Virus record (IMG/VR): IMGVR_UViG_2974588491_000001
Coordinates: 314,380-378,379 of that record
Length of the DNA: 64,000 nucleotides
Direction: 5' to 3' (one strand)
DNA from: a virus
Taxonomy: Duplodnaviria > Heunggongvirae > Uroviricota > Caudoviricetes
Below are positions 5,179 through 62,465 of this stretch, one piece after another (within the stretch, counting starts at the first letter, position 1; each line of letters opens with the position of its first letter). A program made the translations under genes and the position numbers. Under the pieces are notes generated by a model. The model ran no database searches, was not told the origin of the DNA, and saw nothing but the letters and a program-made list of their open reading frames with translations.

Positions 5179-5185
5179 GGATTAT

Positions 5186-5449: not shown

Positions 5450-5467
5450 ATTTGACGGAGTGATTAT

Positions 5468-6171: not shown

Positions 6172-6365
6172 CAAAGTACTATATACTTATCGTCTAAAGT
6201 TTAACTTGCATAACAGACAGCACTTGTTGTAATAGTTGAATAGGATACTGATTCGCTCGCAGGAGGTTTCGGGGATACAAGTGAAAGTCTTGTTGAGTAT
6301 ACCAATTTTAAGTAACACAAAAGTAAGTAACTAAGAAACTCAATCAAAAACCAATGAGGTATATC

Positions 6366-9546: not shown

Positions 9547-9557
9547 GAGGTCTTAAA

Positions 9558-9863
9558 ATGAAAGTGTTCGGTATTTTGTTTCTCGCGGTAGTAGCGTATA
9601 TTGCTTTTATTCGTTTCGCAGATGCAAGTACTTTACCAACAAACAAATATGCTTTTTGTTCAGGTTACGCAAGTAAAATGCACGAAGTATATCGTTTGAA
9701 ACATTACCAAAAAATGCAAGAATTTTTCGAAGCACTCATTGGTAACAAAACAGATGAATTTACATCAGAGTACTATCAGTCAGGTTCAGAAGTAGTTAAA
9801 ACTGGTCTTTCCATTAAACTGAACGTCAATGATAAGTGCGAGGTGCTTTTCCATAAAGGGTAA
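9558..9863 (+). CDS. small protein with N-terminal signal or TM segment
   Basis: ORF with GAGG RBS. Confidence 0.5.
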   Translation: MKVFGILFLAVVAYIAFIRFADASTLPTNKYAFCSGYASKMHEVYRLKHYQKMQEFFEALIGNKTDEFTSEYYQSGSEVVKTGLSIKLNVNDKCEVLFHKG

Positions 9864-9866
9864 CAC

Positions 9867-10349
9867 ATGACAGAAGGTATTATATTTTTCTTTGCGTTTC
9901 AGGTTTTATTTGCAATTGCCAGTGGTGGCCTTGCACCTCGAATCATGTACGCATTGACAGTAAGTAATGGGTTCTGGAACTTCTTACAGAACTATGCTTT
10001 ATCTTATCAGGTATCATACGATCAGATACATAGTACTGAGAAGTTTCTACCTGAAGTTAATTCTAAGTTAGAGAAACTTTTAACTTTAGCATTAATTAAT
10101 GAAGCAGGTGTCGGTATAAGTACTGACTATCGCCGTGATAATGGTATAATACTTCGCATTGAAAAACCACATACGTTCACTGGTTCTGGATATGGCAATA
10201 CCGTCCATTTTTATATGGACAATGGTATGATTGATGAAGAAAAATATGCACTATCACCAACTGTTTTTATTCTTGCACAAAAAGTGTACAAGCGTGTACT
10301 TGCCGCTAAAGAGCAGGAAAAAATTGAAAAGAAACGAAGTAAAATCTAA
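9867..10349 (+). CDS. hypothetical protein
   Basis: 160-aa ORF. Confidence 0.55.
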   Translation: MTEGIIFFFAFQVLFAIASGGLAPRIMYALTVSNGFWNFLQNYALSYQVSYDQIHSTEKFLPEVNSKLEKLLTLALINEAGVGISTDYRRDNGIILRIEKPHTFTGSGYGNTVHFYMDNGMIDEEKYALSPTVFILAQKVYKRVLAAKEQEKIEKKRSKI

Positions 10350-10408
10350 TTGACTTCAGTTTTAAATTAAGTATAATATTTTAAAATCAAATTGTGCGAG
10401 GATTTAAT

Positions 10409-10930
10409 ATGTCATCTGTACTAGCAACTAAAATCACCAAAGGTATGATCAATCGTGCTGGTTATATTCCGATTGAAACAACGATGGATAATGGTGGTTT
10501 TCTCAGCATCATGGATGATGACTTTATGTATTATACTTTCAAAGATTGTTTGAAGGTTGACCGTACCGATTTCCACAAATGGGTATGTTATTGGGATTCT
10601 TACCCATTTGCAATTGTCTGTGATGTTAAAGCTGACAAACTCGCAAACGGATATACCAAAGTTGCCATTCTCAATAAACAAATTGTTCCGGTTTCTGAAG
10701 TTGGTGAATTCCCTTCTAAACGTAATATTTGTTTTGGTTCGATGATAAAAGGCAAATTCGTAACCAACAAAGGTGTTGAGCAGTACGTTACTGACAACTT
10801 CGGCAATGTTCAGGTTAGCACACGCACCAATGTAAGTACTGGTAAAAAAGAAAAAACTGTACTTTCAAATGATGAAATCAAAAATCTAAAAGAAGAAATG
10901 CAACGCAATTGGGGTTGTACTCTAAAATAA
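10409..10930 (+). CDS. hypothetical protein
   Basis: GAGGA RBS then ATG in frame with ORF 10394..10930. Confidence 0.55.
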   Translation: MSSVLATKITKGMINRAGYIPIETTMDNGGFLSIMDDDFMYYTFKDCLKVDRTDFHKWVCYWDSYPFAIVCDVKADKLANGYTKVAILNKQIVPVSEVGEFPSKRNICFGSMIKGKFVTNKGVEQYVTDNFGNVQVSTRTNVSTGKKEKTVLSNDEIKNLKEEMQRNWGCTLK

Positions 10931-10931
10931 T

Positions 10932-10962
10932 AAATTCGGGGATTAACTATCCCCGAAACTTT
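10932..10962 (+). terminator. rho-independent terminator
   Basis: cggggat-taacta-tccccg followed by aaactttt. Confidence 0.55.
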
Positions 10963-10974
10963 TAATGGTGAAAT

Positions 10975-11445
10975 ATGAAACGTTCAACTTTTCTTGGTAT
11001 TACCTTAGCATTAATTGCAGTTGAAATTGCATATACTACTGCAAGCCTGAATGAAACATATCAATTCATGAATGGTGTACTACAAAATAAGTACTACGCT
11101 CTGTTTGCAATTTCATATATCGGGTTCGTATTATTCTCAGGATGGTTCTTTACTTTTTCAGTACCAACACTTGAGTATAAACGCCAAGTACATGGGTACT
11201 TTGAAGAAGTATTCGGACAAGAGAAATATAGTTTCCTGTATACTTATCACTTCCTTGCATTCGCGGTAGCAACATTTTATCTCAGTGCCTGGCCGTACTT
11301 TATTATGAGTACTGTTATGTGGCTATTCTGGACATGGGTACGTTCTAAGCAGAATGAATATGCGGAAGAATACGAACTCGAACGTAAGAAGGAAGAAGCT
11401 AAACATAAACCAACTGTAGTACTTGATCGTACTGATTTACTATAA
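10975..11445 (+). CDS. membrane protein
   Basis: multiple hydrophobic helices. Confidence 0.55.
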   Translation: MKRSTFLGITLALIAVEIAYTTASLNETYQFMNGVLQNKYYALFAISYIGFVLFSGWFFTFSVPTLEYKRQVHGYFEEVFGQEKYSFLYTYHFLAFAVATFYLSAWPYFIMSTVMWLFWTWVRSKQNEYAEEYELERKKEEAKHKPTVVLDRTDLL

Positions 11446-35794: not shown

Positions 35795-35818
35795 AAAAGC
35801 CCCAAAAGGGGCTTTTTT
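35795..35818. terminator. bidirectional terminator between convergent genes
   Basis: aaaagcccc-aaaa-ggggctttt. Confidence 0.65.
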
Positions 35819-36470
35819 AATTTGTGAGATTTAATGGTGGTGTCGGAACTGTAATAGTACTGCCACCATTATATAATGCTTTATTTGTAATCCGTATTTG
35901 ATCATAGTACGCAAGTGAATTTGTTTCATATCCACCAATGCGTAACGGAGTATTATTATCTCCCCAAATATCAGATGTTAAAGTAATTTTAAGTATACCA
36001 TTGATGTACAAATAAACATTACCTGAATGTTGAAGGATACAGAAATGTGTCCATGTGTTTAATGGTATGTTAGCACTTGACGAAACTGAACCACCTTTTG
36101 CTCTACCTTGTAGGTATAGACTTCCACTGTATATTTTCAAACCACTAGTGGTTCCTGTTCCTGAACTCATGTACCAGTTGTTTGATGTATTGTTTGTGCA
36201 ATACGCATACCATTCAAGTGTGAAATCCTGACCAGTACCAATAGTTGTATCAGCACGATCCACAGCACTGATTGTATAGTACCCGTAACGAAAATCATAG
36301 CTGTTCCCAATAATAGCGGGTGTTGTTGGTACAGGAACAGAGCCAACAGTATTAATAACCCTTGTTGGTTTAGCAATATCAATTTTGCCGTTGTTTGCAT
36401 GTAATAGGAATTTTGTAGCGTATTCAACTATTACATTTGCATATTTTATGATTCTTGCGAATGGTAACAT
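35817..36470 (-). CDS. MLPF-family protein (MLPFARIIKYAN...), ConA/LamG-like
   Basis: WTHFCILQHSGNVYLYINGILK-type laminin-G motif. Confidence 0.75.
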   Translation of the reverse strand: MLPFARIIKYANVIVEYATKFLLHANNGKIDIAKPTRVINTVGSVPVPTTPAIIGNSYDFRYGYYTISAVDRADTTIGTGQDFTLEWYAYCTNNTSNNWYMSSGTGTTSGLKIYSGSLYLQGRAKGGSVSSSANIPLNTWTHFCILQHSGNVYLYINGILKITLTSDIWGDNNTPLRIGGYETNSLAYYDQIRITNKALYNGGSTITVPTPPLNLTN

Positions 36471-36479
36471 AATAGTTCC

Positions 36480-37151
36480 TTATTTTATCTCTGTTATTTT
36501 TAATTTAGCAAGTGAACCACCAAAATAATATGGTTGCCCACCAACTTCAGCACTAACATATGATCCACCAATAGATAGCTTATATCCAATTCCGTATGGA
36601 TATAGAGGAAATGTTTGTGTATTATTGTAATAAGAACTTTTCACCGTAATACCAGAATTCTTTATATATGTGAATGTCATAGTTTCCCACGACATATGGT
36701 TAGTTCCATTCATTAAAACTCTATTATATGTTTCCCCGCTATCTAAAAAGTACTGGAAATATGTTGATGGAAATTGGTTTAATGCACATGTGATTCCTGG
36801 AATTCTTTGTGAGCTATAATTACCAGTTTCCCATAAACCTTCCATCACTGAAGTTCTGTTAGTTTTAAACTGTATTACTACCTCAAAACTTCTATTAGTA
36901 AGATCTAGTTTTGAACCACTTATAATTGGTGGTGTTACATAATATCCTGCACCACTAAATTTAAAAACGTTTTGTCCTAATTGTGGATCGTATTGGACAG
37001 AGCCAGCAGTTCCAATTGTACTAAATTGTGCTCCTGCATTATCTCTGATAAAATTGTCACCAATTGTTTGTGTACTGAAATCAATATCTAACAGTACTGT
37101 ATTTGGAGGTAAAATATTTGCATATTCTACCAATCTTGGAAATGGTAACAT
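36480..37151 (-). CDS. MLPF-family protein (MLPFPRLVEYAN...), jelly-roll-like
   Basis: conserved N-terminus. Confidence 0.75.
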   Translation of the reverse strand: MLPFPRLVEYANILPPNTVLLDIDFSTQTIGDNFIRDNAGAQFSTIGTAGSVQYDPQLGQNVFKFSGAGYYVTPPIISGSKLDLTNRSFEVVIQFKTNRTSVMEGLWETGNYSSQRIPGITCALNQFPSTYFQYFLDSGETYNRVLMNGTNHMSWETMTFTYIKNSGITVKSSYYNNTQTFPLYPYGIGYKLSIGGSYVSAEVGGQPYYFGGSLAKLKITEIK

Positions 37152-37159
37152 AATATCCT

Positions 37160-38017
37160 CTATTGAAATCTATATTGTGAATTTATTGGTGAAGTTGAAT
37201 ATCCATACATACTATATACTTTAACGCCATCTAATGATGTATATAATGCTCCGCGAGATATACCAACTGAAGTGTTAAAACCGACTTGCGACCAAGTATT
37301 AGTACTAATACTATATTTGTACAATCTTTCAGCATTAACACAGTAGATGGCATCATTATATTCATTATAAGTCATTCTACCTTGCATTGATGCCATAGAA
37401 CTCCATGTTCCAGTAGAAATTAAAAATTTCTGACCACTAGAACCTTGACAGTACAAATAATTTCCATCAGTTGTCATATCACCAGCCAACGAATTAGTAA
37501 TACTAGAACTTGTTAGTGTAGTCCATGCATTAGATGCAATGTCATATGAAAATAATTGTGAACCGCCGTCACTACCCCATAGATATAGCTTTCCATTATT
37601 TGTACTTACAAACCTACAATGGTGTCTAGCTGATGGCTTATTAGTACTCGTTGTATTTTCAGACCAAGTATTAGATGATATATCGTATATAAAAAATCTG
37701 TTTTGCATGGAACCAGTATATCCACCAAACATATATATTTTTCCATTATATCCAGCTAAACCTGAACCATGCATTGCTAATGTTCCATTAGCTAATGGTT
37801 CCCATGTTTCAGTACGAGTGTCAAATCTCCAAAATTCATTATTATAATCACTGCCAACTACTGCACCACCATACATATAACCATAGTTATCTAAACTAGT
37901 ATATCCAAAAGAAAATCGTGCACTAGGGGAAATAGTAGGTGAAATTTGGATTCTTGTTCCGGTATTATTTTCTTTTCTGATATTTCCATATTCTATCAAT
38001 CTTGGGAATGGTAACAT
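37160..38017 (-). CDS. MLPF-family protein (MLPFPRLIEYGN...), Kelch-type beta-propeller
   Basis: repeated YMYGG / IYMFGG / LYLWGS blades. Confidence 0.75.
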   Translation of the reverse strand: MLPFPRLIEYGNIRKENNTGTRIQISPTISPSARFSFGYTSLDNYGYMYGGAVVGSDYNNEFWRFDTRTETWEPLANGTLAMHGSGLAGYNGKIYMFGGYTGSMQNRFFIYDISSNTWSENTTSTNKPSARHHCRFVSTNNGKLYLWGSDGGSQLFSYDIASNAWTTLTSSSITNSLAGDMTTDGNYLYCQGSSGQKFLISTGTWSSMASMQGRMTYNEYNDAIYCVNAERLYKYSISTNTWSQVGFNTSVGISRGALYTSLDGVKVYSMYGYSTSPINSQYRFQ

Positions 38018-38721
38018 TATACTTCTCCGCTTAATTCATGTGTATATATTTTTGCAATTGTCGCATTATCTAATAGATAATCATACATCCTGTGTCCAGC
38101 AATTCCCCCAGCTAACGGTGTAGCGGTTGGGTTACTTGGATAGTACCCTAAACCAACACTACGTGCTGTTGTTGTACCAGTACCGTAACCAGTAAATGTA
38201 GGACTTACTGACTGAGTTTTTATCAATACTCCATCAGCATAAAAACGTAAAGTATTAGTACTCCTATCATAAGAATATACAGCATGTACCCATGTATTAA
38301 CAGGCATTGAGTACTGACCAAAATAAGAATTAGTAGTACTCGCAGTATTCACACAATAAAAATTCCGTACTAACGATGGAGAACCACCAGTATTGTAACT
38401 GAACCCAATATTACCAGATGCATTTATGTATGCCTTTGCAGCAGTACTAGTAGTGTATACCCAATTCATTGCAGTCCATGATGAATTTGCATAAACTATT
38501 TCATCATAGTATAATCTCTGTGCTCCATTACATACAAGAGCTTGTTTACCACCAACTGTACCTATTGTACCAGATGTATAAGTGAAGTTCGCTTGTGTAA
38601 ATTTAGGATTTGTGGTATCACCATGATTAGCAATATCAGCACGTAAGGGTAAGTACACCAATGGTGCTGGAAGAATATTTGCAGCATTTCCATATTCTAA
38701 CATTCTTGAAAAAGGTAACAT
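38017..38721 (-). CDS. MLPF-family protein (MLPFSRMLEYGN...), ConA/LamG-like
   Basis: NTWVHAVYSYDRSTNTLRFYADGVLIK motif. Confidence 0.75.
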   Translation of the reverse strand: MLPFSRMLEYGNAANILPAPLVYLPLRADIANHGDTTNPKFTQANFTYTSGTIGTVGGKQALVCNGAQRLYYDEIVYANSSWTAMNWVYTTSTAAKAYINASGNIGFSYNTGGSPSLVRNFYCVNTASTTNSYFGQYSMPVNTWVHAVYSYDRSTNTLRFYADGVLIKTQSVSPTFTGYGTGTTTARSVGLGYYPSNPTATPLAGGIAGHRMYDYLLDNATIAKIYTHELSGEV

Positions 38722-38730
38722 AATATCTCC

Positions 38731-39573
38731 CTATTTGATTTTGTAAAATTTAGTTCCGTTTACTGTCCAACCTGTATCATATGAACATGCTATAGCAACT
38801 TCATTTCCACCAGCAGGAGCAGTATTGTTAATTTTTGTCCATACATTAGTGTTTATACTGTACTGCCATAAACCCGCCGTTGGCCCAACTGCATAAATGT
38901 AATTACCCATTCTACTTATTTTATTACGTGTTCCAATTCCTGCACATGATGCAAGGGTTTGCCATGTATTACTTTCTATATGATAACGTGCAAATGAAGT
39001 ACTGTACATCATATACAAATAACCAGAACTATAAATTAAACCTACCTCATCACCATTACTGCTACCAAAAGGTAAAGTTGCTAAACCTGTGGTACTCCAT
39101 GTATTTTGTAACACACTATATCTCCACATAGCTGAACCTTTAACTGCATAAACATAATCACTATTATCATAGTTCATCGCAATACTTAAATCATACGTGC
39201 TTTGTGGTAGTACTGCCATCTGACTCCAAGTATTCAAGATTGTATCATATCTGTCAAATCTGTTCGTACTACTATATCCACCAGCACAATAGATATATCT
39301 GCTATCAGCACATATTCCAATGTTTCTAACATTTATTGGTCTTGTTGTAAGTAAGGTGACTGCACCTGAAACTGGATTCAGTTTATATATTTGGCTTGTC
39401 TGGTTAATGAAATATATATTGTCTCTGTATGTACAAGATCTTGACCCATATGTTCCAAAGGTTGAAACGGTGGTATATTCTTGTACTGTTCCTGATAATT
39501 TATTTGGGTTTGAATCATCATAATTAAACACTACTGTATTTCCGTACTCATTGATTATAGAAAAAGGTAACAT
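38731..39573 (-). CDS. MLPF-family protein (MLPFSIINEYGN...), beta-propeller-like
   Basis: repeated IYxxGG blades. Confidence 0.75.
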   Translation of the reverse strand: MLPFSIINEYGNTVVFNYDDSNPNKLSGTVQEYTTVSTFGTYGSRSCTYRDNIYFINQTSQIYKLNPVSGAVTLLTTRPINVRNIGICADSRYIYCAGGYSSTNRFDRYDTILNTWSQMAVLPQSTYDLSIAMNYDNSDYVYAVKGSAMWRYSVLQNTWSTTGLATLPFGSSNGDEVGLIYSSGYLYMMYSTSFARYHIESNTWQTLASCAGIGTRNKISRMGNYIYAVGPTAGLWQYSINTNVWTKINNTAPAGGNEVAIACSYDTGWTVNGTKFYKIK

Positions 39574-39619
39574 TTCAATCCCTCAAATTTATTAATATTA
39601 TGTATTTACTTACAAAAAC

Positions 39620-39647
39620 AGAAAAAGCCCAACCTAAGTTGAGCTTA
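39620..39647 (-). terminator. intrinsic terminator inside the MLPF array (- strand)
   Basis: agctcaac-tta-ggttgggct followed by a T-run on the - strand. Confidence 0.55.
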
Positions 39648-39650
39648 TAA

Positions 39651-40322
39651 TTAACTTATAATCTTTAATTTTAAATACTTCATGTACCCATAAAAATTAG
39701 TTGCCGTAGGAGTTTTGAAATAACCACCTACACCAAAAGACTGTCCATTAGAACATTCAAATGCAGTATACGTGGACTGATTGGCAATAACACCATTTAC
39801 ATATCTGGTAATAGTTACATTTGAATCAACTTTTCTGTACACAACTCTTTGCCAATCACTTACTAACTGACCATCAACAAAATGTCGAACAAATGTACTA
39901 GCGTTCTGTAGAAAGTACTGATCATTTCCTGCGTACTGTAATATCTGATGAGCAAATCCAGGTATGTTATTCGTTACATCTGGATAATATCCTGTACCAT
40001 AAAGTAATTGAATTGCGTTAACCGCAGAGTTTCTTTTGTACATAACATCGAACTCATAATTCTTCCCGTTCAATGAGATAGATGCATCTAGCGGGGTACT
40101 GAAAACTGCACCATTGAAATACATAACATTTGCATTCAACATATTATCCAGTACGATTTTACCCTCCAAAGAATTTAACTTAGTGAAAAGTCTATTCTTA
40201 TAACTATAATCAATTATATTAGTATCACCCAATGCTTGTCGAGAAAAATCTAAATTTATTTCATACTCATTGGAAACTACTTTTTTATTACCGTACTGTA
40301 ATAATCTTGGAAATGGTAACAT
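39651..40322 (-). CDS. MLPF-family protein (MLPFPRLLQYGN...), jelly-roll-like
   Basis: conserved N-terminus. Confidence 0.75.
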   Translation of the reverse strand: MLPFPRLLQYGNKKVVSNEYEINLDFSRQALGDTNIIDYSYKNRLFTKLNSLEGKIVLDNMLNANVMYFNGAVFSTPLDASISLNGKNYEFDVMYKRNSAVNAIQLLYGTGYYPDVTNNIPGFAHQILQYAGNDQYFLQNASTFVRHFVDGQLVSDWQRVVYRKVDSNVTITRYVNGVIANQSTYTAFECSNGQSFGVGGYFKTPTATNFYGYMKYLKLKIIS

Positions 40323-41085
40323 ATAAATTCCCCTCTATATCTTTTAATATCCTGTATTTACCATTGTTATAACTATATAAATATCTACTATCCGCACATA
40401 ACATAGAATTGTTTAATTCAGATGTTCCTAATGATGCAGTACTCCATGTGTCACTTAACATATCATATATGTACAGATTACTATTACCTATACCATATAA
40501 CTTGTAATTGTTATACGCCGTGCCAGTACTATAACTCAACTTCAACGGAGGAAATGTAAGTTCTTCCCAGGTCCACGTACTTATATCTATCCGATACATA
40601 CCATTGTATAAATCAGCAGCCCATATGTAAAAGTAATTAGTCTCACCAATATTAACAAAATATATCATCGCTTGTGATAATTTTCCTGGAGAATTCGTAG
40701 TAACAATAACATCCCATGTGTCAGATTCAATACTATATCTATACAACTTATCACTTACCTGTGTGCCATTACTATCCTTTACACCACCGTACAAGTATAT
40801 GTGAGAATTATAATACGTACTCGTTGTACCATATAAAACTTCAGGCATAGATGATAATTGATGCATGGTATTATCTATAGTACTGTACCTGTACAAATTA
40901 TTAGTTACCTGTGTACCATTCCATCCACCACATATGTATATGTCTGACTGTACTGAACATACCATATGACCATATAATTGTGTGCCACCTAGTGTAATTC
41001 CTTGCGGTTCTACAACTTCCATATCTCCATCAATAATACCAGGTGCTGAATTTCCATAAGCACTTACTATACTAAACGGTAACAT
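40288..41085 (-). CDS. MLPF-family protein (MLPFSIVSAYGN...), beta-propeller-like
   Basis: IYICGG / IYLYGG repeats; 35-nt overlap with the downstream gene. Confidence 0.7.
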   Translation of the reverse strand: MLPFSIVSAYGNSAPGIIDGDMEVVEPQGITLGGTQLYGHMVCSVQSDIYICGGWNGTQVTNNLYRYSTIDNTMHQLSSMPEVLYGTTSTYYNSHIYLYGGVKDSNGTQVSDKLYRYSIESDTWDVIVTTNSPGKLSQAMIYFVNIGETNYFYIWAADLYNGMYRIDISTWTWEELTFPPLKLSYSTGTAYNNYKLYGIGNSNLYIYDMLSDTWSTASLGTSELNNSMLCADSRYLYSYNNGKYRILKDIEGNLYVTISKIITVR

Positions 41086-41151
41086 TTTAAATCTCCTATT
41101 GATTATTTGTTAATGTATTAGGGAATGAACGATCATCTCCATAAATTATTC

Positions 41152-41184
41152 TTACAGCACCACCAATTGCGGAAAAGGTAACAT
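41152..41184 (-). pseudogene. 10-codon remnant of an MLPF-family gene (MLPFPQLVVL*)
   Basis: AAGGAGAT RBS, ATG and 10 codons of the family N-terminus, then TAA. Confidence 0.45.
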
Positions 41185-42214
41185 ACTTTTATCTCCTTCT
41201 TATTTTTTTATACGTCTCTATTATACTATGATAGAAACTAATATAGGTATTTACCCACTTTATCATTCCTAGACACTCCTTAGAACACATGCTATAATCC
41301 CCCTAGAAGCTCGTAGAACGCTCTACAACGCACGTGTTTGATTCCTGTAGTATCGCTATTGCGATATCGAAAGGATTCAAACTAGCTAAAATAGCGTTCA
41401 CGATATTCTATGTATTAATATACAGTACTGTAATAATACACAATATGGATAAGTTATCAGTACTATATGTTTGTACAGGAAAAGATAGGTTCTATCTTAT
41501 AGTACTATAGAAGTACAGTTCAGTACTGTTGACCCCTTCCGCTATATCCGTTCCTGAAGTCGAATGCGAATAGCACAAAAAGTACAGCAACCTTTTTTCA
41601 AAAATGATAACATGAGGTTGGGAAAAATCTGGAGTGATCGTGAAATCAAATACGAATCAAGGAAATTTTGGAGTACCCTTCAGACTTTTTCTGAGATCTC
41701 GAAAGTACACCAAAGTAAAGACGCATCGTAGAAATTACGTTCAATACTATAATACAAATACAAAGTACTGAAAATTTATACAGTACTGTTATTATGCACA
41801 GTGCAATATAAATTTTAAAATCAGATGAAAAAAGTACTTGACGAGGGATGATGGAATTGATACTATAGCTACAAGTTAAGGAGACAGGCAACGGTCAAGC
41901 CTCTCAGCCACGTAGCCTGGAACCTTAACAGTACTGCAATGATGGTTGCCCCCTGATTTGCAGTCCTCTTACCAGAGGTGTTCTCTTCATTGCTTAGGAA
42001 ACATTAAGTACTAAGCGTGTTAAAAATTTGAAGTACTTTATAGTACTATGCAGTGTACATTCTACTAAGTCATCCTGCCAATAACTTTTGAATGTATAGT
42101 GCTAGTACTATATCTTTTTAAGTGAGAATATTAGTACTGTATAAGTACTGATGAATTACCAAAGTACAGATACAATGAGGGTATATGTTGTCTGAATTTT
42201 GGGTGTACTATCCC

Positions 42215-42360
42215 TATCTGCTATCTTCAGATGGATAGACTTCTGGCGGTGTAGATGGCTGGATGTTTAAACGTCTAGACTGCTATCCTTCTGGATGGCT
42301 AAAAGGCTAGATGGCTATCCGTATAGATGGATAGACGTTTAGACGGCTAAATGATTTTTT
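42215..42360. repeat. iteron-like cluster (AGATGG(A/C)TA(G/T)AC and inverted variants, at least 6 copies)
   Basis: e.g. agatggatagac x2, agatggctgga, ctagatggctatcc in the 2.2-kb non-coding region. Confidence 0.55.
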
Positions 42361-42530
42361 CTGTCAAAATTCCATTAGCTCCCCTTCCGCGACTGGATAG
42401 AACCAGGCAGAATCGAAAGTCGTCTTTTCGTGTTGACAGGGATATAATACCACACTGAAAAACAATTGCAAGGGATTTTTTGCAGAAAAATAAATTTGAC
42501 AAGTGAACCAGGATTATAGTACTATATAAG

Positions 42531-42643
42531 CAAGCCAGAGAAATGGCCTAGCCCACAGGGTGCGGAGATCCGTCTATTGCTTTTTATTTGAATTTTGGAC
42601 ACAATTCCGCACCCTGTGGGTCAAGGAGTTTCGCCTCCATGTA
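42531..42643 (+). repeat. inverted-repeat element copy A (CCCACAGGGTGCGGAG...CTCCGCACCCTGTGGG), ends AAGGAG-N8-ATGTAA start-stop
   Basis: 16-bp arms with ~38-bp spacer. Confidence 0.6.
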
Positions 42644-43254
42644 AAGTATTATGCCAGTACTGCGAACATAATGCAAGGACTTTTTACGATTTTCTTTAAA
42701 AAAGTTTCCCCTTCTATATACGTATAAAGGAAGCGTTTAGAGCGTGTCAGATCCTGGGGCTTACAGTTTTGTACTTTATACTTTATAAAGCCGTGTAAAG
42801 CGTCCTATGCGTTCCTTGTACGTGTATACGTATATAGAGAAGGAAAAGCCTGTTAGAAAGAATCTTATAAAAACTTATATAAAGTACTTGCAAAGGTTTT
42901 TTGGTGTGATAGTATTAATCCCGTCGAACAGGACAACGCTCTTTAAAAACTTGCTGGTGAATACTTAAACATGCCTCCAGGTACTTTGAAAAAAGAATCT
43001 GAGAGAATGAAAAAGTACTTGACAGCAAGAATAGAAAGTGTAGAATGTTCAATATCGAAAGGCGGTAAGGTTCGCCGGATGGTAGGAAGCGGTAGCAGGG
43101 CGATAAAGTACTGCTACAGTGATAAGCCGGAAGTGCTATCACAGCGTTATAAAGGTTAACATAACTGTTAACGTCCTATCTACTGCCTTTTGATTCTTTC
43201 AGTACGGTAAAAGGTACGAAAGAATAAAGATTCAGAAAGTTATCAAAAAGTACT

Positions 43255-43282
43255 TGACGGACTGAATCGCACGATGTAAGAT
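43255..43282 (+). promoter_or_regulatory. promoter (TTGACG-16-TAAGAT) for 43344..44021
   Basis: hexamers plus upstream AAAAGTACT. Confidence 0.5.
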
Positions 43283-43343
43283 GTTAAGTAAGCCGAGTGG
43301 CTAACCCAAAATTCAAAATTTAACTTTTAAGAAGGTATATATC

Positions 43344-44021
43344 ATGACTACTACTAACAACGCTAAAGCTACCAAAGTTACCCTGAACTCTATCGTTTTC
43401 GCTCCGGCTCCGGTACTGCGTGAACTGAAAGAAGGTGAAAACTACACCAAAACCGAACTGAAAGCCCACGAAAAAGAAATGGGCGAATATCTCCGCACCA
43501 CGTCGCACGATTTGGCGATGTACCTGGTAAACAAAACCGACAATACTGATACCATTGTCAAACTGTTTGCCGCTACCGCCGAAGCGATCCCTACAGTACT
43601 GGCCGAAGTACTGAAACAGCGTGAAGAAGAAGAAGCCGCTAAACAGGCTGAACGCGAAAAAGCGGAAGAAGAAAAACGTCGCCTCGCTGAACAGGAAGAA
43701 AAAGAACTGCAAGCGAAGAAAGATGAAATGCTTAAACACATGACCGATGTTCTGGGGCTGGATCTGGATGTTGCGAAAGCTGCGGTTGAAACGGTGGCGA
43801 AAAAGCTGAACGTTGGCAACCATACTAAAAACTCTTATGAGCGTGTAACCTGCACCATTGAAGGCAATCAGTACGATGTTCCGGTGCGTGGTAATATGTC
43901 TCAGGCACTGAAAGATCTGGCGGCGAAATATGGTTTCGCTGATGACCGCGATGGATTCATCGAAAAATTCCGCGATGAACCTGCAACTGCTGATGCTGAC
44001 AAAGATACCGCCGAAGCGTAA
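43344..44021 (+). CDS. abundant-type protein of unknown function (host-optimal codons, central charged coiled coil)
   Basis: AAGG RBS; codon usage CTG/CGT/GGT/AAA/GAA; EEEAAKQAEREKAEEEKRRLAEQEEKEL segment. Confidence 0.75.
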   Translation: MTTTNNAKATKVTLNSIVFAPAPVLRELKEGENYTKTELKAHEKEMGEYLRTTSHDLAMYLVNKTDNTDTIVKLFAATAEAIPTVLAEVLKQREEEEAAKQAEREKAEEEKRRLAEQEEKELQAKKDEMLKHMTDVLGLDLDVAKAAVETVAKKLNVGNHTKNSYERVTCTIEGNQYDVPVRGNMSQALKDLAAKYGFADDRDGFIEKFRDEPATADADKDTAEA

Positions 44022-44170
44022 TATCAAAAGTAATGCGGCAAGGGGGCTAGAAAGCCCCCTGAGCCTTTCTAACAGTACTGTAATACCTTTCCTCAAAGTA
44101 CTATTAGAAACGCTTAGAATCAATCCTACAGCGTTTTAAGATGTATACTTATTAAGTGAGAATAAACGCT

Positions 44171-44440
44171 ATGGAACTAAAACCACTTTCTGAACTCCGC
44201 GATAAAAAAACCATTGTCGCCAGGACAATGATCCACACTTCCCCACGTCAAAAGGTTTTATCTGGCTATCTGGTTTTTGTGCTGGATGGTAAACTAATAC
44301 AACGTCGGATCTATGATATGGCCTATAATAGTACTTTTATGAGTGCTATGTATATAGTTTACAAAGGCGTTAACTATGCCGTAGATCTTGCATGTAAGAC
44401 GATTAGCGGGGCTTTCAGCGTCGAAACGTTGAAAGTATAA
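44171..44440 (+). CDS. hypothetical protein
   Basis: ATG after TTAAGTGAGA motif, in frame with ORF 44156..44440. Confidence 0.5.
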   Translation: MELKPLSELRDKKTIVARTMIHTSPRQKVLSGYLVFVLDGKLIQRRIYDMAYNSTFMSAMYIVYKGVNYAVDLACKTISGAFSVETLKV

Positions 44441-44449
44441 GCCTACAAT

Positions 44450-44485
44450 CAAAAGCCCTTAGAAACGTTTCTAGGGGCTTTATAT
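44450..44485 (+). terminator. rho-independent terminator
   Basis: agcccttagaaacg/cgtttctaggggct stem followed by a T-rich tail. Confidence 0.55.
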
Positions 44486-44575
44486 TTGATTTTAAAAAGT
44501 ACTAAGAAAGTACTTGCAATTTATTTTTGAATCTGTAGAATACTCGTTATTGAAACACGTAACGAGATTTAAGAA

Positions 44576-44860
44576 ATGCAAGTAACACTGAACGGATTTA
44601 CTTTTACAAAGAATGTTGATGGTACTGATAACATTCAGTCAGTACTTAAAAACAAAGATAATAAAGCATTAGGCGGGATTGTCAAAGATGCTAAGAAGAT
44701 GGCAAACTTACAACGCCTGAAACGTTCGCCTGATGTTCTGGTATTCCTGGCTAAAGTACAGGAAGAAACTGAAAAAGTTTACTTTGAACAAAAGAAACCA
44801 AAACCTTACAATAAGTACAAAAGGAAATTTAATCCTTGCATTCATTCTATAAATGTGTAG
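44576..44860 (+). CDS. hypothetical protein
   Basis: 94-aa ORF after promoter AGTACTTGCAA...TAGAAT. Confidence 0.5.
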   Translation: MQVTLNGFTFTKNVDGTDNIQSVLKNKDNKALGGIVKDAKKMANLQRLKRSPDVLVFLAKVQEETEKVYFEQKKPKPYNKYKRKFNPCIHSINV

Positions 44861-44895
44861 AATGTCTTATATCGAAACGCGACGGAGTAAACAAG

Positions 44896-45285
44896 ATGGA
44901 AAGTAAAGCGAAGTTAGAACAATACAGATTAGTACTTGATGTACTGATTCAAATGAAAGATTGTATTGACAAAGATGATACTTATACTACAGTACTGAAT
45001 AAGTCATTCAATCTTTCTCGCTCCCTGGGTATCTGCTGGCATGTATATGTTCACACTCCACCAGCGGAGATCACTGGTATCGGATCGGACTATCTTGAAC
45101 CTGCATTCATTGCGTTAGGGCTTGATCGTGAATATCCGGTTGAATGCCAGGTTGATACTGATTCGCCGCGAATCCTGCACTTTACACAACGTAACCTTTA
45201 CGATCCTGATAACGAGTGCGGAAAGTTGCGGATCAAGTTGGTTAATGATTTGATTCAGTACTTTGAACAAAAGTTATCGCAGTAA
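44896..45285 (+). CDS. hypothetical protein
   Basis: GGAG RBS then ATG in frame with ORF 44836..45285. Confidence 0.5.
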   Translation: MESKAKLEQYRLVLDVLIQMKDCIDKDDTYTTVLNKSFNLSRSLGICWHVYVHTPPAEITGIGSDYLEPAFIALGLDREYPVECQVDTDSPRILHFTQRNLYDPDNECGKLRIKLVNDLIQYFEQKLSQ

Positions 45286-45300
45286 AAATCTTTACAAAAA

Positions 45301-45339
45301 AGAGGTTGACTTCGGTTGGCCTCTTATAGTACTATATTA
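45301..45339 (+). promoter_or_regulatory. PeSL cassette variant
   Basis: GAGGTTGACTTCGGTTGGCCTC hairpin followed by TATAGTACTATATTA. Confidence 0.5.
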
Positions 45340-45340
45340 A

Positions 45341-45451
45341 TAAGCCAGAACAAAGGCGTGACCCACAGGGTGCGGAGATCCGTTCAGTGAAAAGATAATG
45401 AATTTTAGATATAACTCCGCACCCTGTGGGTTAAGGAATTTCGCTTCCATG
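45341..45451 (+). repeat. inverted-repeat element copy B, ends AAGGAATTTCGCTTCC-ATG
   Basis: arms 45362-45377 and 45415-45430. Confidence 0.6.
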
Positions 45452-45661
45452 AATAATAATATACCACTGCTGGAAAGTACTGTCAAGGAAAAAAACAGGG
45501 GAACTTTCATGTTCCCCCTAAATGCGACAAAGGCATATATCGGACTTTGTGCGAGCTTCGTTGATCGCATGAGTACTATATCACAACGGCCAGGCGAGTG
45601 CAACTATTTGATCTGTGATAAAAATATACTTTCAAACGTGAAAAGTACTTGCAAAGAATGA
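45449..45661 (+). CDS. hypothetical protein starting at the ATG built into the IR element
   Basis: ATG in frame with ORF 45398..45661. Confidence 0.35.
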   Translation: MNNNIPLLESTVKEKNRGTFMFPLNATKAYIGLCASFVDRMSTISQRPGECNYLICDKNILSNVKSTCKE

Positions 45662-45708
45662 TTAAAGGAGTATACTTAACTTATCGAAACGAACAAGAGG
45701 ATTTAAAA

Positions 45709-45981
45709 ATGGCTAGTTACAGTGCGTCAATGATTGTTAAGGATTTAGCAGGAAAGCCGTGTTTAGCTTGCGGTTCCTTTGGTAACATTGCGATAGATGG
45801 TAGATTATCTATTTCCAGGGCGATAGAGATAGCGGAGGAAAGTTTTAAGAAAGAATCCAAATTTCAAAACAGCGAATACTTGGGATTTGTAATTGAGAAA
45901 ACTTCTCGATTCGTTGAATATCGTAATCCGAGTATTATCGGTAATAAAGAAGTAAAAACTTTTAAAGAACTTGAACGATAA
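45709..45981 (+). CDS. hypothetical protein
   Basis: GAGGA RBS then ATG in frame with ORF 45649..45981. Confidence 0.5.
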   Translation: MASYSASMIVKDLAGKPCLACGSFGNIAIDGRLSISRAIEIAEESFKKESKFQNSEYLGFVIEKTSRFVEYRNPSIIGNKEVKTFKELER

Positions 45982-46044
45982 TACTTGCAAAGTGGGTAAT
46001 GGTTTAGTACTATTACCCTATCGAAACGAACTGAGGATTTAAAG

Positions 46045-46491
46045 ATGGGAACTCCAGCATGTATCGCAGTAATGAACGACAATAAAGAAGTTACTTGGAC
46101 TTATGTTAACTATGACGGTTATTTAAACGGCGTAGGTAGAATGTTGATCGAGCATTACAACGATCTGTCAATAGCTAAAAAATTAATTTCAATGGGTGAT
46201 ATTTCAACATTGAAGCGAACGATGGATTGCCCCGTTGGTCACTCATTCGCTACACCTGCACCAAATTGCACAGTATTCTATGAGCGGGATCGTGGTGAAG
46301 ATAATGTAAAACCACGTCACGGCGATTATGCTATGTTCCTGCGTTGTAATAAAGGTACAATTAGTTATATCTACACGGATGGACAATGGCACATAGTACG
46401 GGAAACAAGTAAACGCGGTGCAATTTTAGACCGTCATAAATTGTTAGTACTTGGCGAAGTGTTATCCGGTTTATATGATTTTTCGCGTTAA
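46045..46491 (+). CDS. hypothetical protein
   Basis: 148-aa ORF. Confidence 0.55.
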   Translation: MGTPACIAVMNDNKEVTWTYVNYDGYLNGVGRMLIEHYNDLSIAKKLISMGDISTLKRTMDCPVGHSFATPAPNCTVFYERDRGEDNVKPRHGDYAMFLRCNKGTISYIYTDGQWHIVRETSKRGAILDRHKLLVLGEVLSGLYDFSR

Positions 46492-62364: not shown

Positions 62365-62465
62365 AGCCAGAACAAAGGCGTAGCCCACCGGGTGCATAGG
62401 CACGTCCAAAATTCAGTACTCAAATTTTAGATAGATCTCCGCACCCTGTGGGTCAGACCGTTACA
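62365..62465 (+). repeat. inverted-repeat element copy C (degenerate left arm, perfect right arm)
   Basis: CCCACCGGGTGCATAG ... CTCCGCACCCTGTGGG. Confidence 0.55.

Follow-up and report, generated by a model that had tools for sequence, protein, structure and literature searches.

What is the function of the large gene-free gap that separates two divergent sets of genes near the end of a jumbo phage genome? The DNA analyzed here (hereafter the window) is the final 64 kb of Pectobacterium jumbo phage vB_PcaM_CBB (CBB), and the region in question matches KU574722/NC_041878 at 355569-357699 with 100% identity. Coordinates below are those of the window unless a record is named. A previous sequence-only reading had described a gene-free region of about 2.2 kb between divergent transcription units and proposed that it was a replication origin or packaging region with iteron-like repeats. 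The gap is indeed present: 2258 bp separate the initiation codon of the Kelch-repeat gene at 40288-41085, the last on the minus strand, from that of the first plus-strand gene (ATG at 43344), and the genes on either side are transcribed away from the gap. In GAP32, BF, and other relatives, in-frame stops break both annotated mini-ORFs, gp001 (41564-41731) and gp002/gp424 (42971-43159), and the comparison shows that 41085-43344 encodes no protein. The segment 41400-42200 had been regarded as AT-rich and dense in AGTACT. Its GC content is 34.5%, compared with 36.3% for the window, which is at the 24th percentile of 800-nt windows, and GC in the region ranges from 34.5 to 41.8%, which is not unusually low. 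AGTACT is the commonest hexamer overall (276 copies vs. approximately 21.5 expected), and its 20 copies in the region correspond to 9.4/kb, which matches the 8.4/kb across all non-coding DNA of the window. AGTACT is also the most frequent hexamer of the entire genome, and its density is not a local feature.

CBB has a direct terminal repeat of 22,456 bp, annotated in its record as a redundant repeat at 355924-378379 and 1-22456, and the region straddles the inner boundary of the right copy at 41544/41545; approximately 460 bp of unique DNA to the left of the boundary belongs to the region, and the remainder is repeat. Window positions 41545-64000 are identical to record positions 1-22456 over 22,456 bp, but the two copies were compared as deposited, and their identity is therefore not independent of the authors' assembly. 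Because the region spans this inner boundary, it equals the sequence at the physical left end of the genome, and the boundary is therefore also the predicted genome end and the position at which concatemers are cut. The packaging part of the earlier proposal stands to this extent: the terminal-repeat boundary, where concatemers must be cut, falls within the region. The boundary sequence (41533-41561) reads CCCCTTCCGCTA up to 41544 and TATCCGTTCCTGAAGTC from 41545. Its position is a coverage-based prediction, made by the authors from doubled read depth and PFGE (PMC5259590). The BF record begins at a TATC homologous to the CBB boundary base. For fEgEco12, PhageTerm and restriction digests confirmed the termini, and its end has in common with the CBB boundary the CTA that precedes it and GAAGTC at +12 to +17. 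Inspection of the right boundary of the CBB repeat revealed neither a shared cut-site motif nor a second copy of the array described below. Both sides of 41544/41545 contain conserved sequence. Just to the left, alignment identified a block on the plus strand (41300-41410, block A) containing a nested hairpin (41336-41382; GTTTGATTCC...GGATTCAAAC), which is approximately 88% identical in Kaldavass and in XbC2, where it is located at the end of the record; block A is a candidate small RNA or DNA element. To the right, the first ~170 bp of the genome (41545-41715), which overlap the annotated gp001, form a terminal block that alignment shows to be conserved in GAP32 and BF; part of this block is also kept in Kaldavass, XbC2, and fEgEco12.

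The reported 11-12-bp repeats form a strict tandem array with a period of 8 bp (42229-42348, plus strand), delimited by periodicity and by the metbox matrix used below, which is located 685-804 bp from the left end of CBB. It consists of 15 units in one register with the unit consensus AGA(T/C)G(G/T)CT. The lag-8 identity of the array is 0.517, compared with 0.255 ± 0.039 in shuffled sequences (0 of 20,000 reached the observed value), and tops every 128-nt window of the 64 kb; Tandem Repeats Finder gave periods of 8, 16, and 32. The motif given in the sequence-only reading, AGATGG(A/C)TA(G/T)AC, occurs in only two exact copies and two copies with up to two mismatches, all of them direct and none inverted. 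In the left flank of the array (42208-42228), the units, as read from the sequence, are inverted (CTATCCCTATCTGCTATCTTC), and this flank is kept in GAP32 and BF. Searching the literature for the repeat sequence gave nothing but matches to unrelated primers. A comparison by eye with the consensus sequences of Chi, KOPS, SlmA, CsrA, and DnaA sites gave no fitting reader for the repeats or for AGTACT: the array units have at least two mismatches to GCTGGTGG, the GGA core required by CsrA is missing from most units, and SlmA needs a G before and a C after AGTACT, which are the least-used flanks of this hexamer.

We evaluated the array using the metbox matrix and site criteria of PMC3228920, in which the metbox consensus is AGACGTCT. 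A MetJ site is defined there as at least two adjacent 8-bp boxes in one register, each scoring at least 3.145 bits (one-quarter of the consensus), with a total that reaches the consensus score of 12.58 bits (PMC3228920). Thirteen of the 15 consecutive 8-mers of the array exceeded the box threshold, the total being 91.6 bits, and three stretches in the same register qualified as MetJ sites, namely, 42229-42244 (two boxes, 14.1 bits), 42253-42284 (four boxes, 31.5 bits), and 42293-42348 (seven boxes, 47.6 bits). Random 64-kb sequences yielded at most three boxes and 20.5 bits. Elsewhere in 142 kb of CBB, we detected only two 2-box matches, which is the chance level, and the array is the sole such cluster. 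These results suggest that the array comprises putative binding sites for the host repressor MetJ, a match that rests on the weight matrix. The boxes are asymmetric, with a strong left half (AGA) and a right half that is often GCT, not TCT, and the mean score of a passing box is about 7 bits out of 12.6; the reader could therefore be an unrelated protein with a comparable 8-bp grammar. There is no methionine gene near the array and, by eye and by consensus scan, no convincing promoter overlaps it; it is therefore not an operator in the regulatory sense. In short, the array has the grammar of a MetJ operator without the regulatory context of one.

Copies of a 17-mer of the array, AGACGTTTAGACGGCTA, precede metX as well as a methionine aminotransferase gene and msrA in bacterial genomes and also lie between metR and metE, and all 43 bacterial loci with this 17-mer (43/43) have two to five boxes at the site. 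The number of matches is near a rough chance estimate of ~70, and their information is in the met-gene context and the taxonomy, not in the count. The CBB array resembles MetJ operators in its strict tandem register of 8 bp, with a TpA step joining one unit to the next, in the fit of its units to the AGACGTCT matrix and the published site criteria, and in the 17-mer shared with the metX and metE/metR operators. It differs from them in having 13-15 boxes, compared with 2-5 in the bacterial sites examined, in being located on terminal-repeat DNA, and in its right half-sites, which are weaker than the consensus.

Similar arrays of 6-28 boxes are present in terminal-repeat non-coding DNA of Rak2-like, T5-like, and T7-like phages (28 boxes in AhSzq-1, 15 in fEgEco12, 12 in KIT04, and 9 in PGT2), and up to 28-36 boxes were counted in other phages or viral contigs. 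Among 96 phage records with such arrays, 95 name Enterobacterales, Vibrio, or Aeromonas hosts; the exception, XbC2, was deposited as a Xanthomonas phage, that is, with a host order that lacks MetJ, yet it has 14 boxes. MetJ is known only from five gammaproteobacterial orders, which include the Enterobacterales, Vibrio, and Aeromonas groups, and is present throughout Enterobacterales, with Pectobacterium metboxes being mentioned (PMC3228920). Arrays are found in few phage lineages (roughly four to six), and the number of independent events behind their association with MetJ-bearing hosts is correspondingly small. None of the phage records searched encodes a MetJ homologue, and no publication in the literature searched connects phage genomes with MetJ or metboxes. 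A scan of IMG/VR for TAGA-cored 8-bp arrays gave a heterogeneous and only partly informative set with many perfect microsatellites; perfect 8-bp TAGA-core microsatellites occur in many viral contigs, in some cases at contig ends.

The array is located approximately 800-915 bp from the left end in fEgEco12, BF17, vB_Ec-M-J, CRJP21, and ELP-22. In PGT2, it is inside the 260-bp terminal repeat and matches the CBB array at 82% over 67 nt, and in Providencia phage PR1, it is within the annotated terminal repeat, at 9.6 kb. In the T5-like phages KIT04, AhSzq-1, and Quinn, the array adjoins DnaA-box and palindrome elements resembling the T5 injection-stop region. It is located between the genome end and the ensuing genes in the Rak2-like phages and PGT2 and between converging genes in KIT04 and AhSzq-1; its relation to transcription thus differs between lineages. 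In T5 itself, no array was found within the fetched positions 9,000-11,000, which cover Repeat Region 3, and the DRD repeats of that region (TGTGCAAATCCGACA) are not the same element. The KIT04 record lacks a second terminal-repeat copy at its right end.

The remainder of the gap has the features of an early leader. In agreement with the sequence-only reading, promoter-like sites are enriched (18 in the region vs. 7.4 ± 2.7 expected), and the promoter hexamers are conserved while the spacers vary. P1 to P5 are five predicted, conserved sigma-70 promoters of the host type, all directed rightward into the early genes; the promoters, transcription starts, and RNAs described here, all on the plus strand, are predictions. 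Another promoter-like site, P0 (41270-41298; TAGACA-17-TATAAT with a TG extension, 11/12 consensus), is located in the unique DNA to the left of the boundary, and XbC2, GAP32, and Kaldavass retain part of its -10 region. P1 (41838-41866; TTGACG-17-TACTAT) follows AAAAAGTAC, and its -35 and -10 are conserved in GAP32, XbC2, and BF. Its variable transcript would end at a conserved hairpin, GCTTAG...CTAAGC (41992-42016), which has two compensatory pairs in BF (GTTCAG...CTGAAC). Beyond the array, a block at 42370-42448 contains CCATTAGCTCCCCTTCCGCG, a hairpin CTGG...CCAG (42393-42406), and GAATCGAAAG...CGTCTTTTCGTGTTGACAGGGATATAAT. This block is near-invariant in six phages, is also present in fEgEco12, and is strongly conserved in all phages compared, the left flank of the array being conserved in some; the hairpin shows a compensatory CTAG/CTAG in BF and Yen904. 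Exact matches to CCCCTTCCGC occur only in this block and 2 nt to the left of the repeat boundary.

P2 (42496-42525; TTGACA-18-TACTAT, with an A-rich upstream element) has hexamers that are invariant in six phages and a spacer that varies. Its candidate transcript is the IR leader RNA element (42531-42645), which is supported by covariation; the inverted repeat had been recognized from the sequence, and its arms are a perfect 15 nt (42552-42566 and 42606-42620). The predicted fold has a small 5' hairpin, a stem of 12-13 bp (42551-42563 with 42609-42621) around a variable loop, and, in the 3' part, a hairpin in which AAGGAG, a Shine-Dalgarno-like sequence, is masked, with ATG-TAA after it. Ten of its 23 pairs show compensatory changes, and none of 500 shuffles exceeded the covariation score. 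The IR arm occurs 11 times in the terminal-repeat part of the window (0.26 expected), each time downstream of a promoter. Both reported TATACGTATA palindromes are present, at 42717-42726 and 42825-42834 (reported at 42712 and 42826), but the second is not conserved: relatives keep the direct repeat RTATAAAGGAAAG, not the palindrome. P3 (42888-42915; TTGCAA...TGaTAGTAT, an extended -10) follows AAAGTAC and is conserved in six phages. A boxA-like antitermination signal, CGCTCTTTAAAAA (CGCTCTTTAACAA in BF and Yen904), was identified at 42937-42949 by sequence match, with CGCTCTTTA at 42937-42945, approximately 22 nt past the -10 of P3, whose transcription start is predicted. The boxA sequence is UGCUCUUUA in rrn and CGCUCUUA in lambda (PMC2724277), and the CBB element has the sequence sought for a boxA (GCUCUUUA for rrn or CGCUCUUA for lambda, downstream of a promoter). 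In addition, GCTCTTTAAMAA is unique in the window, where 0.02 copies are expected, and the core CGCTCTTTAA is invariant in six phages, with the rest of the element varying at two positions. P4 (43019-43046; TTGACA-16-TAGAAT with a TG extension, 11/12 match) again follows AAAAAGTAC, and its hexamers and upstream AAAGTAC are invariant in six phages. Its product would be a structured non-coding RNA candidate with a closed multi-helix fold of ~140 nt (43054-43194), which overlaps gp002 and is supported by covariation: 11 of 46 pairs show compensatory changes and 94.6% of cells are paired, values that 0 of 500 shuffles reached, and slid controls gave 0-2. Indels here are not multiples of three and relatives contain stops, that is, the gp002 ORF is not conserved. 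Finally, scanning and alignment placed P5 (TTGACG-17-TAAGAT) and the 5' UTR of the first early gene at 43254-43343; the UTR contains a hairpin, AGCCGAGTGGCT, and a Shine-Dalgarno sequence, AAGAAGG (43329-43335), ahead of the ATG at 43344. Rfam at gathering and permissive thresholds gave no match for the IR leader or the P4 RNA; it found four tRNAs elsewhere in the window and only meaningless microRNA matches in the region.

This arrangement shares features with several known systems. Lambda cosB contains the IHF site I1, and the CBB array is conceptually similar as a host-protein site in a terminus-proximal cis-acting region; the candidate protein and the geometry differ, with 685 bp separating the array from the cut site. 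Promoter-early stem-loop (PeSL) cassettes of T4-type phages may resemble the early promoters of the CBB terminal repeat, which are embedded in hairpins and followed by the recurrent IR leader. The left end of T7 consists of the terminal repeat, short repeat arrays, the host promoters A0-A3, boxA, a processing hairpin, and the first gene. Like it, the CBB left end has an untranslated leader, strong inward-reading promoters for host RNA polymerase with a boxA downstream (PMC3709561), and hairpin RNA elements preceding the first gene. By contrast, the CBB terminal repeat is 22.5 kb rather than 160 bp, its 1.8-kb leader contains several predicted structured RNAs, its short-repeat array is of the metbox type, and CBB has no T7-type RNA polymerase. 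CBB also resembles T5 Repeat Region 3, the injection-stop region, in having a large untranslated repeat-rich part of a long terminal repeat ~0.5-0.8 kb from the boundary. Repeat Region 3 carries sites for a host protein, namely, DnaA boxes, and the T5-type injection stop signal is characterized by paired DnaA boxes in inverted repeats, IRD'-spacer-IRC' (Davison preprint). CBB lacks such pairs, whereas KIT04 has them beside the array, and in the T5-like Vibrio and Aeromonas phages, the metbox array is directly beside DnaA boxes and palindromes. The array is near the left repeat boundary in CBB and near the right (inner) boundary of the left repeat in the T5-like phages.

Could the region be a replication origin, in which the repeats are iterons for a phage initiator beside an AT-rich unwinding region? 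It is a long non-coding stretch between divergent units with clustered direct repeats, as in iteron origins, and with clustered promoters. There is a local minimum of cumulative GC skew near 41-42 kb, and its strong promoters could in principle supply transcripts to prime an R-loop origin, as in T4-type phages. However, the repeat period is 8 bp (super-periods 16 and 32), compared with 17-22 bp for iterons and units of ~20 bp in iteron origins, and no initiator or DNA-binding domain is encoded by the flanking genes: Pfam gave no significant match for the seven genes to the right (within 43344-46491), and the left neighbor is the Kelch-repeat protein. The region contains a single, isolated TTWTNCACA DnaA box, at 41792, rather than a cluster, and no AT-rich unwinding element was found. 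The GC-skew analysis that had been suggested as a check covered 141 kb (40% of the unique genome) and showed no polarity switch, the skew being about +0.1 to either side of the site; the only dip, that is, the minimum, coincides exactly with seven minus-strand genes (35817-41085), and the CBB paper makes the same point (PMC5259590). The origin of T5, moreover, does not lie in the corresponding repeat-rich part of its terminal repeat (Davison preprint). We found no origin signature in the region. The repeats do look like protein-binding sites, as had been proposed, but they fit the operator grammar of the host repressor MetJ and not that of an initiator, and we consider an origin very improbable.

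Even as a protein-binding site, the array may be read in different ways. It could be a site for a small terminase or another phage protein, such as a ribbon-helix-helix protein, that resembles metboxes by chance. Ring-shaped small terminases and ribbon-helix-helix proteins frequently read short tandem repeats, and such a protein would suit an array that is always in terminal-repeat DNA near the boundary, has strongly conserved sequence to its right, and consists of asymmetric, sub-consensus boxes. Nevertheless, phages with unrelated packaging enzymes, such as PGT2 and CBB, share the unit grammar and even the order of variant units, the identical 17-mer lies within genuine met-gene operators, arrays are almost confined to phages of MetJ-bearing hosts, and 685 bp to the cut site is far for a cos/pac-type site; we therefore regard a phage protein as an unlikely reader. 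Alternatively, replicating phage DNA could act as a sponge that titrates MetJ and de-represses metK, metE, and other genes, the terminal position being incidental. Methionine and S-adenosylmethionine (SAM) would then feed phage protein synthesis and the three DNA methyltransferases of CBB, which include adenine and cytosine enzymes. In length, phage arrays exceed each of the 43 bacterial metbox sites examined by a factor of 2-7, which would raise capacity, and each genome has two array copies because the array lies in the terminal repeat. In PA5oct, a related jumbo phage, host RNA polymerase is used for the whole of the infection, and host transcripts persist early. Titration would leave unexplained the constant terminal-repeat location in three lineages and the conserved block to the right of the array; T5-type and T7-type infections also involve early shut-off or destruction of host DNA, and de-repression of host genes would therefore be of little use there. 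This makes titration as the main function distinctly unlikely in our judgment. A functionless minisatellite, generated by replication slippage in non-coding terminal DNA, would agree with the array indels among relatives, which are multiples of 8, and with the perfect TAGA-core microsatellites of many viral contigs. Yet the units are degenerate and their order is conserved across genera, the position of the array is conserved from Mimasvirus to Asteriusvirus, and the metbox score has survived the observed substitutions far better than it would survive random mutation. Relatives retain this score at 8-19% divergence, and the BF array, which differs at 23 of 120 positions, still has 12 boxes and 99 bits, compared with 6.4 boxes and 18 bits expected under random mutation (P < 0.001). 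Slippage without function is hardly credible.

The conserved sequence to the right of the array and its constant location in terminal-repeat non-coding DNA of three unrelated lineages argue for a nucleoprotein site. From this analysis, the array is most likely the host-factor part of a terminus-proximal cis-acting nucleoprotein site for the entering or packaged DNA end, to which IHF at lambda cosB and the DnaA boxes at the T5 injection-stop region would be analogues. Host MetJ dimers with SAM would bind one per 8-bp box and polymerize cooperatively along the array, and MetJ would thereby coat ~120 bp of DNA ~0.7 kb from the repeat boundary. Titration of MetJ, de-repressing methionine and SAM supply, would be a secondary or alternative effect of such a site. 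Early transcription would proceed rightward from P2-P5, with P2 and P4 driving the conserved structured RNAs, and P3 transcripts may become resistant to termination through boxA and Nus factors, as at the T7 left end. The account as a whole, a left-end untranslated leader with a MetJ-type array as a terminus-proximal site and no origin, is in our view probable, although far from certain. The more specific proposal that a MetJ filament on the arrays arrests, anchors, or licenses the entering genome end, or marks the boundary for concatemer processing, is speculative and, in itself, rather doubtful.

These results correct the annotation of the region, which is now a terminal-repeat boundary followed by an early leader, with two doubtful ORFs removed, and they add predicted promoters, a predicted boxA, and predicted non-coding RNAs to a poorly annotated jumbo phage. 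It was unexpected that the supposed iterons carry the grammar of a MetJ operator. If MetJ binds the array, phages would be using a host metabolic repressor in a new way, whether by having it serve structurally as a host factor at genome ends or by titrating it as a methionine/SAM switch; the MetJ-filament reading, if true, would tie phage DNA entry or packaging to the SAM status of the cell. In T5-like phages of Vibrio, Aeromonas, and Providencia, the array would then be part of the long-sought injection stop signal. The array would also be a concrete candidate for the terminus-near cis-acting signals, including the T5-type injection-stop region, that have resisted explanation.

A megablast search matched window positions 41190-43320 to Pectobacterium phage vB_PcaM_CBB (KU574722/NC_041878, 378,379 bp) at record positions 355569-357699 with 100% identity, and the window is therefore the final 64,000 bp of the CBB record (record = window + 314,379). 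The record annotates a "redundant repeat" at 1-22456 and 355924-378379; given this offset, the right copy of the direct terminal repeat starts at window position 41545 and extends to the window end, and direct comparison showed that record 1-22456 and window 41545-64000 are identical. The authors of the CBB paper predicted the repeat from doubled read depth, with PFGE in support, and discussed neither the non-coding region at 41085-43344 nor any origin (PMC5259590). The CBB boundary reads ...CCGCTA/TATCCGTTCCTGAAGTCG, where the slash marks the junction, and the verified boundary of the Rak2-like phage fEgEco12 reads ...CCCACTA/AGTAGGCAGAGGAAGTCTG; CTA/ and GAAGTC at +12 to +17 are common to both. 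In a six-phage alignment (CBB, GAP32, Kaldavass, XbC2, BF, and fHe-Yen9-04), the first bases of the BF record are the TATC homologous to the CBB boundary. The likeness to fEgEco12 and the start of the BF record provide a degree of independent backing for the CBB boundary, which was predicted from coverage. The studied region spans the left physical terminus of virion DNA, the position at which concatemers have to be cleaved.

The sequence CAGTACTG lies approximately 17-28 nt upstream of the boundaries of CBB (41533-41561), BF (L004, 1-20), and fEgEco12 (L115, 470-520; L numbers denote fetched sequence stretches), and the common CTA/, GAAGTC, and CAGTACTG pattern may represent a signature of terminase cutting sites. 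Where the CBB repeat begins (41562-41571), GAATGCGAAT is reminiscent of T5-type injection-stop repeats. The loop of the inverted repeat contains an inserted GCGAATGAGAATCATTAC in BF (L004, 1040-1060) and fHe-Yen9-04, the T5 counterpart of which is AAATGAGAATCATT. XbC2, in which the match lies at the extreme end of the record, and Kaldavass both show approximately 88% identity to the unique DNA directly left of the boundary (41300-41410). This block is predicted to form a nested hairpin and has a promoter-like site upstream. Copies of the motif ATCGAAAG occur at 41366, 42412, and 43054.

The non-coding gap spans 2,258 bp, from a minus-strand Kelch-repeat gene (40288-41085) to the ATG at 43344 of the first plus-strand gene. 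Two small ORFs annotated within it carry stops or frame-breaking indels in the aligned relatives, even in GAP32, which is 86-93% identical in the region; this bears out the sequence-only reading, which saw no convincing ORF there. Its inverted repeat and TATACGTATA motifs were confirmed as well, and promoter-like sites are indeed in excess. The 41400-42200 segment, described there as AT-rich, is not notably so, with a GC content of 34.5% versus 36.3% for the window (24th percentile). AGTACT is frequent as described (20 copies, 9.4 per kb), but this is a genome-wide property rather than a local feature. It is the commonest hexamer both in the window (276 copies versus approximately 21.5 expected; 8.4 per kb in non-coding and 3.4 per kb in coding DNA) and in record 1-100000 (413 copies versus 33 expected), and the density therefore belongs to the genome, not to this locus. 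Its favoured context is [A/C]AGTACT[G/T]; some copies belong to an early-promoter form, AAAGTACTTGAC, and most lie within genes. The hexamer reaches 6.6-8.6 per kb at the corresponding loci of GAP32, BF, XbC2, Kaldavass, and fEgEco12 and is almost absent from those of the T5-like and T7-like phages. We found no mention of AGTACT in papers on Rak2-like phages in the searchable literature.

The iteron-like 12-mers, reported as direct and inverted, are present as two exact and two degenerate copies, all direct. They belong to an array of 15 tandem 8-bp units at 42229-42348, which reads AGATGGAT AGACTTCT GGCGGTGT AGATGGCT GGATGTTT AAACGTCT AGACTGCT ATCCTTCT (units 1-8) and GGATGGCT AAAAGGCT AGATGGCT ATCCGTAT AGATGGAT AGACGTTT AGACGGCT (units 9-15). 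Its lag-8 identity of 0.517 (0.255 ± 0.039 when shuffled; 0 of 20,000 shuffles as high) is the highest among all 128-nt windows of the 64 kb, and Tandem Repeats Finder reported periods of 8, 16, and 32. Operators of the methionine repressor MetJ are tandem 8-bp "metboxes" with the consensus AGACGTCT, each bound by one repressor dimer; repression needs at least two adjacent boxes and the cofactor S-adenosylmethionine (SAM) (PMC3228920). With the weight matrix and thresholds taken from that study, we predicted four metbox sites in the window, three of which (2, 4, and 7 boxes) are the array in one register; the fourth, with two boxes, is at chance level. Thirteen of the 15 consecutive 8-mers in the array pass the threshold, for a total of 91.6 bits, whereas the maximum in 100 random 64-kb sequences was three boxes and 20.5 bits. 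Record 1-100000 contains only one further two-box site. The array far exceeds the sequence requirements published for a MetJ site.

The best conserved 17-mer of the array, AGACGTTTAGACGGCTA, occurs at 43 loci in bacterial genomes, which by a rough estimate is about the number expected by chance. The loci cluster in Pasteurellaceae and further gammaproteobacterial groups, where they immediately precede a -35 element, and the flanking genes are metX (NF001209, E = 1e-143), divergent metR/metE, a methionine aminotransferase gene, and msrA. This position and met-gene context are the signature of MetJ operators. In all 43 loci, the site containing the 17-mer has 2-5 boxes.

Sensitive blastn searches found the array in all Rak2-like jumbo phages and, unexpectedly, in T5-like Demerecviridae of Vibrio and Aeromonas and in the T7-like phages PGT2, phiKT, and KPV811. 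The predicted boxes number 28 consecutive in AhSzq-1 (221 bits), 15 in fEgEco12, 12 in KIT04, 9 in PGT2, 2 + 4 + 8 in both XbC2 and Kaldavass, 2 + 4 + 4 + 3 in BF, 4 + 8 in Quinn, and 4 + 2 in KPV811; a matrix scan of T5 positions 9,000-11,000 detected no metbox array in that segment. In the relatives, 8-19% of array positions differ from CBB, and the metbox score is kept or higher. The BF array has 23 differences in 120 positions, yet retains 12 boxes and 99 bits, where random mutation at this divergence would leave 6.4 boxes and 18 ± 15 bits (P < 0.001). Array indels are multiples of eight (-24 in fHe-Yen9-04 and +8 in pEa_SNUABM_12). As judged from these comparisons, the array is under selection for the metbox property. 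PGT2 and CBB have in common the order of the variant units as well as the motif (82% identity over 67 nt), and the module is therefore homologous across families.

A blastn search with the AhSzq-1 array as the query returned 96 phage records, which represent only about four to six array-bearing lineages; the hosts were Escherichia (36), Vibrio (33), Erwinia (7), Aeromonas (5), Salmonella (4), Providencia (4), Pectobacterium (2), Cronobacter (2), Serratia (2), and Xanthomonas (1). MetJ is confined to Enterobacterales, Pasteurellales, Vibrionales, Aeromonadales, and Alteromonadales (PMC3228920). We found no MetJ homologue in phage records, as the three tblastn matches were two bacterial contigs and a 1.4-kb fragment. 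Given MetJ-bearing hosts and no phage MetJ, the reader of the array is most simply the host protein. XbC2 was deposited with Xanthomonas as its host, and the order of that stated host, Xanthomonadales, lacks MetJ; yet this phage has 88% identity to CBB here and a 14-box array (L008, 648-775). Either its natural hosts include Enterobacterales or the array functions without MetJ.

Array matches in phages very often lie within a few hundred bases of the record end. The CBB array is 685-804 bp from the left end, and those of BF17, vB_Ec-M-J, CRJP21, and ELP-22 are at about 808-916. PGT2 has an exact terminal repeat of 260 bp, with the array at its positions 38-109, and the array of Providencia phage PR1 lies at 9.6 kb, within the annotated terminal repeat. 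In the T5-like phages KIT04, AhSzq-1, and Quinn, paired DnaA boxes and palindromes resembling the T5 injection-stop region (Davison) immediately precede the array, and CCTGCGCC, similar to the T5 nick site annotated at 9661-9668, comes after it. In AhSzq-1 (L006, 3935-3960), a palindrome GAATGCGAAT...ATTCGCATTC adjoins the array. Some uncultivated viral contigs in IMG/VR have even longer arrays of metbox type. L047 has 36 boxes (7257-7544; 356 bits) no more than approximately 100 bp from the end of the fetched stretch, and the arrays of L035 (156-275) and L039 (4854-4981) comprise 15 and 16 boxes, respectively. At the ends of IMG/VR contigs there are also many further 8-bp microsatellites with a TAGA core, which may be assembly artefacts.

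GAP32 and BF retain the left flank of the CBB array, GAATTTTGGGTGTA with a few inverted units; Kaldavass and XbC2 do not. The right flank consists of CCATTAGCTCCCCTTCCGCG and, after it, a hairpin showing compensatory changes, and this flank is near-invariant in all six aligned phages. Only two places carry the exact 10-mer CCCCTTCCGC: the sequence right of the array and a point 2 nt to the left of the repeat boundary. At 42433-42448, an invariant GTGTTGACAG..TATAAT places -35-like and -10-like hexamers just 4 bp apart, a spacing too short for a normal promoter, and is conserved in the six phages.

The rest of the gap has the features of an early leader. Five predicted sigma-70 promoters, P1 (41838-41866), P2 (42496-42525), P3 (42888-42915), P4 (43019-43046), and P5 (43254-43282), are all on the plus strand and have conserved hexamers with variable spacers in the alignment. 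Most contain the AAAGTACTTGAC form, which has nine copies in the window, all on the plus strand. In the related jumbo phage PA5oct, host polymerase transcribes terminal-repeat genes early, and the repeat also contains the loci of two abundant non-coding RNAs (PMC7318152). P3 is followed by a boxA-like CGCTCTTTAAAAA (CGCTCTTTAACAA in BF and fHe-Yen9-04), a pattern unique in the window (0.02 expected) with the core CGCTCTTTAA invariant in 6/6 phages; it matches the boxA elements of rrn (UGCUCUUUA) and lambda (CGCUCUUA) (PMC2724277). A similar layout exists in T7, where a boxA antitermination element lies downstream of the left-end host promoters A0-A3 (PMC3709561). Downstream of P4, 43054-43194 is a candidate closed multi-helix RNA of approximately 140 nt with 46 predicted pairs, 11 of them compensatory, and 94.6% of cells paired, and the inverted-repeat leader downstream of P2 (42531-42645) has 23 pairs, 10 of them compensatory; with only 6-8 sequences from three clades, this covariation is suggestive rather than conclusive. 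None of 500 shuffles reached the values of the P4 candidate, and slid controls gave 0-2 compensatory pairs. The candidate, which covaries in the six phages, has no Rfam family; the annotated ORF gp002/gp424, disrupted in the relatives, lies across it. The arm of the inverted-repeat leader has 11 copies in the terminal-repeat part of the window (0.26 expected), each downstream of a promoter embedded in a hairpin. Leader elements with the arm CCCACAGGGTGCGGA occur at 45362-45430, 48095, 50013, 51775, 56775, 58992, and 62384-62452, three as full inverted repeats and the rest as single arms, approximately 20-35 nt downstream of sigma-70 promoters within TTCG-loop hairpins (GGTTGACTTCGGTTGGCC). The arrangement resembles terminator-promoter cassettes with a cis-acting 5' leader RNA after each. 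The annotated ORF gp419 (45337-45510, minus strand) runs antisense over one such element and a promoter and is probably spurious. Elsewhere in the window, 4422-6172 contains four tRNA genes (Cys, Met, Met, and Ala), part of the large tRNA set of the phage.

Phages with a T4-type replisome can start replication from promoter-derived R-loops and by recombination at genome ends, and a start in this region is possible, but no sequence evidence singles it out. The sequence-only reading had proposed an iteron-type origin, none of whose defining features was found: the repeats recur every 8 bp and lack an iteron period, the neighbouring genes encode no initiator or DNA-binding domain, and the region holds a single DnaA box rather than a cluster and no AT-rich element. 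GC skew is approximately +0.1 on both sides of the junction over 141 kb; its sole dip coincides with seven minus-strand genes (35817-41085), as was also remarked in the CBB paper (PMC5259590).

To read the region as a terminal repeat and leader is ordinary, and the CBB paper already implies part of this; a metbox super-array on phage termini is apparently unreported, and we found no paper in the searchable literature linking MetJ or metboxes with phage genomes. Adjacent MetJ dimers bind cooperatively, and MetJ with SAM would coat the array in this manner. The main alternative for its role is that the array titrates MetJ and so raises methionine and SAM supply, an idea that fits the three DNA methyltransferases in CBB. 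Against any role of MetJ stand the asymmetric, sub-consensus boxes and the anomalous host of XbC2, and the match to MetJ is one of sequence. We favour, more speculatively, a role in which the array supplies the host-factor component of a cis-acting complex near the terminus, because its location in the terminal repeat is constant in three lineages and a conserved block follows it. Such a complex would serve entry, anchoring, or repeat-boundary processing, and this role is compatible with titration.
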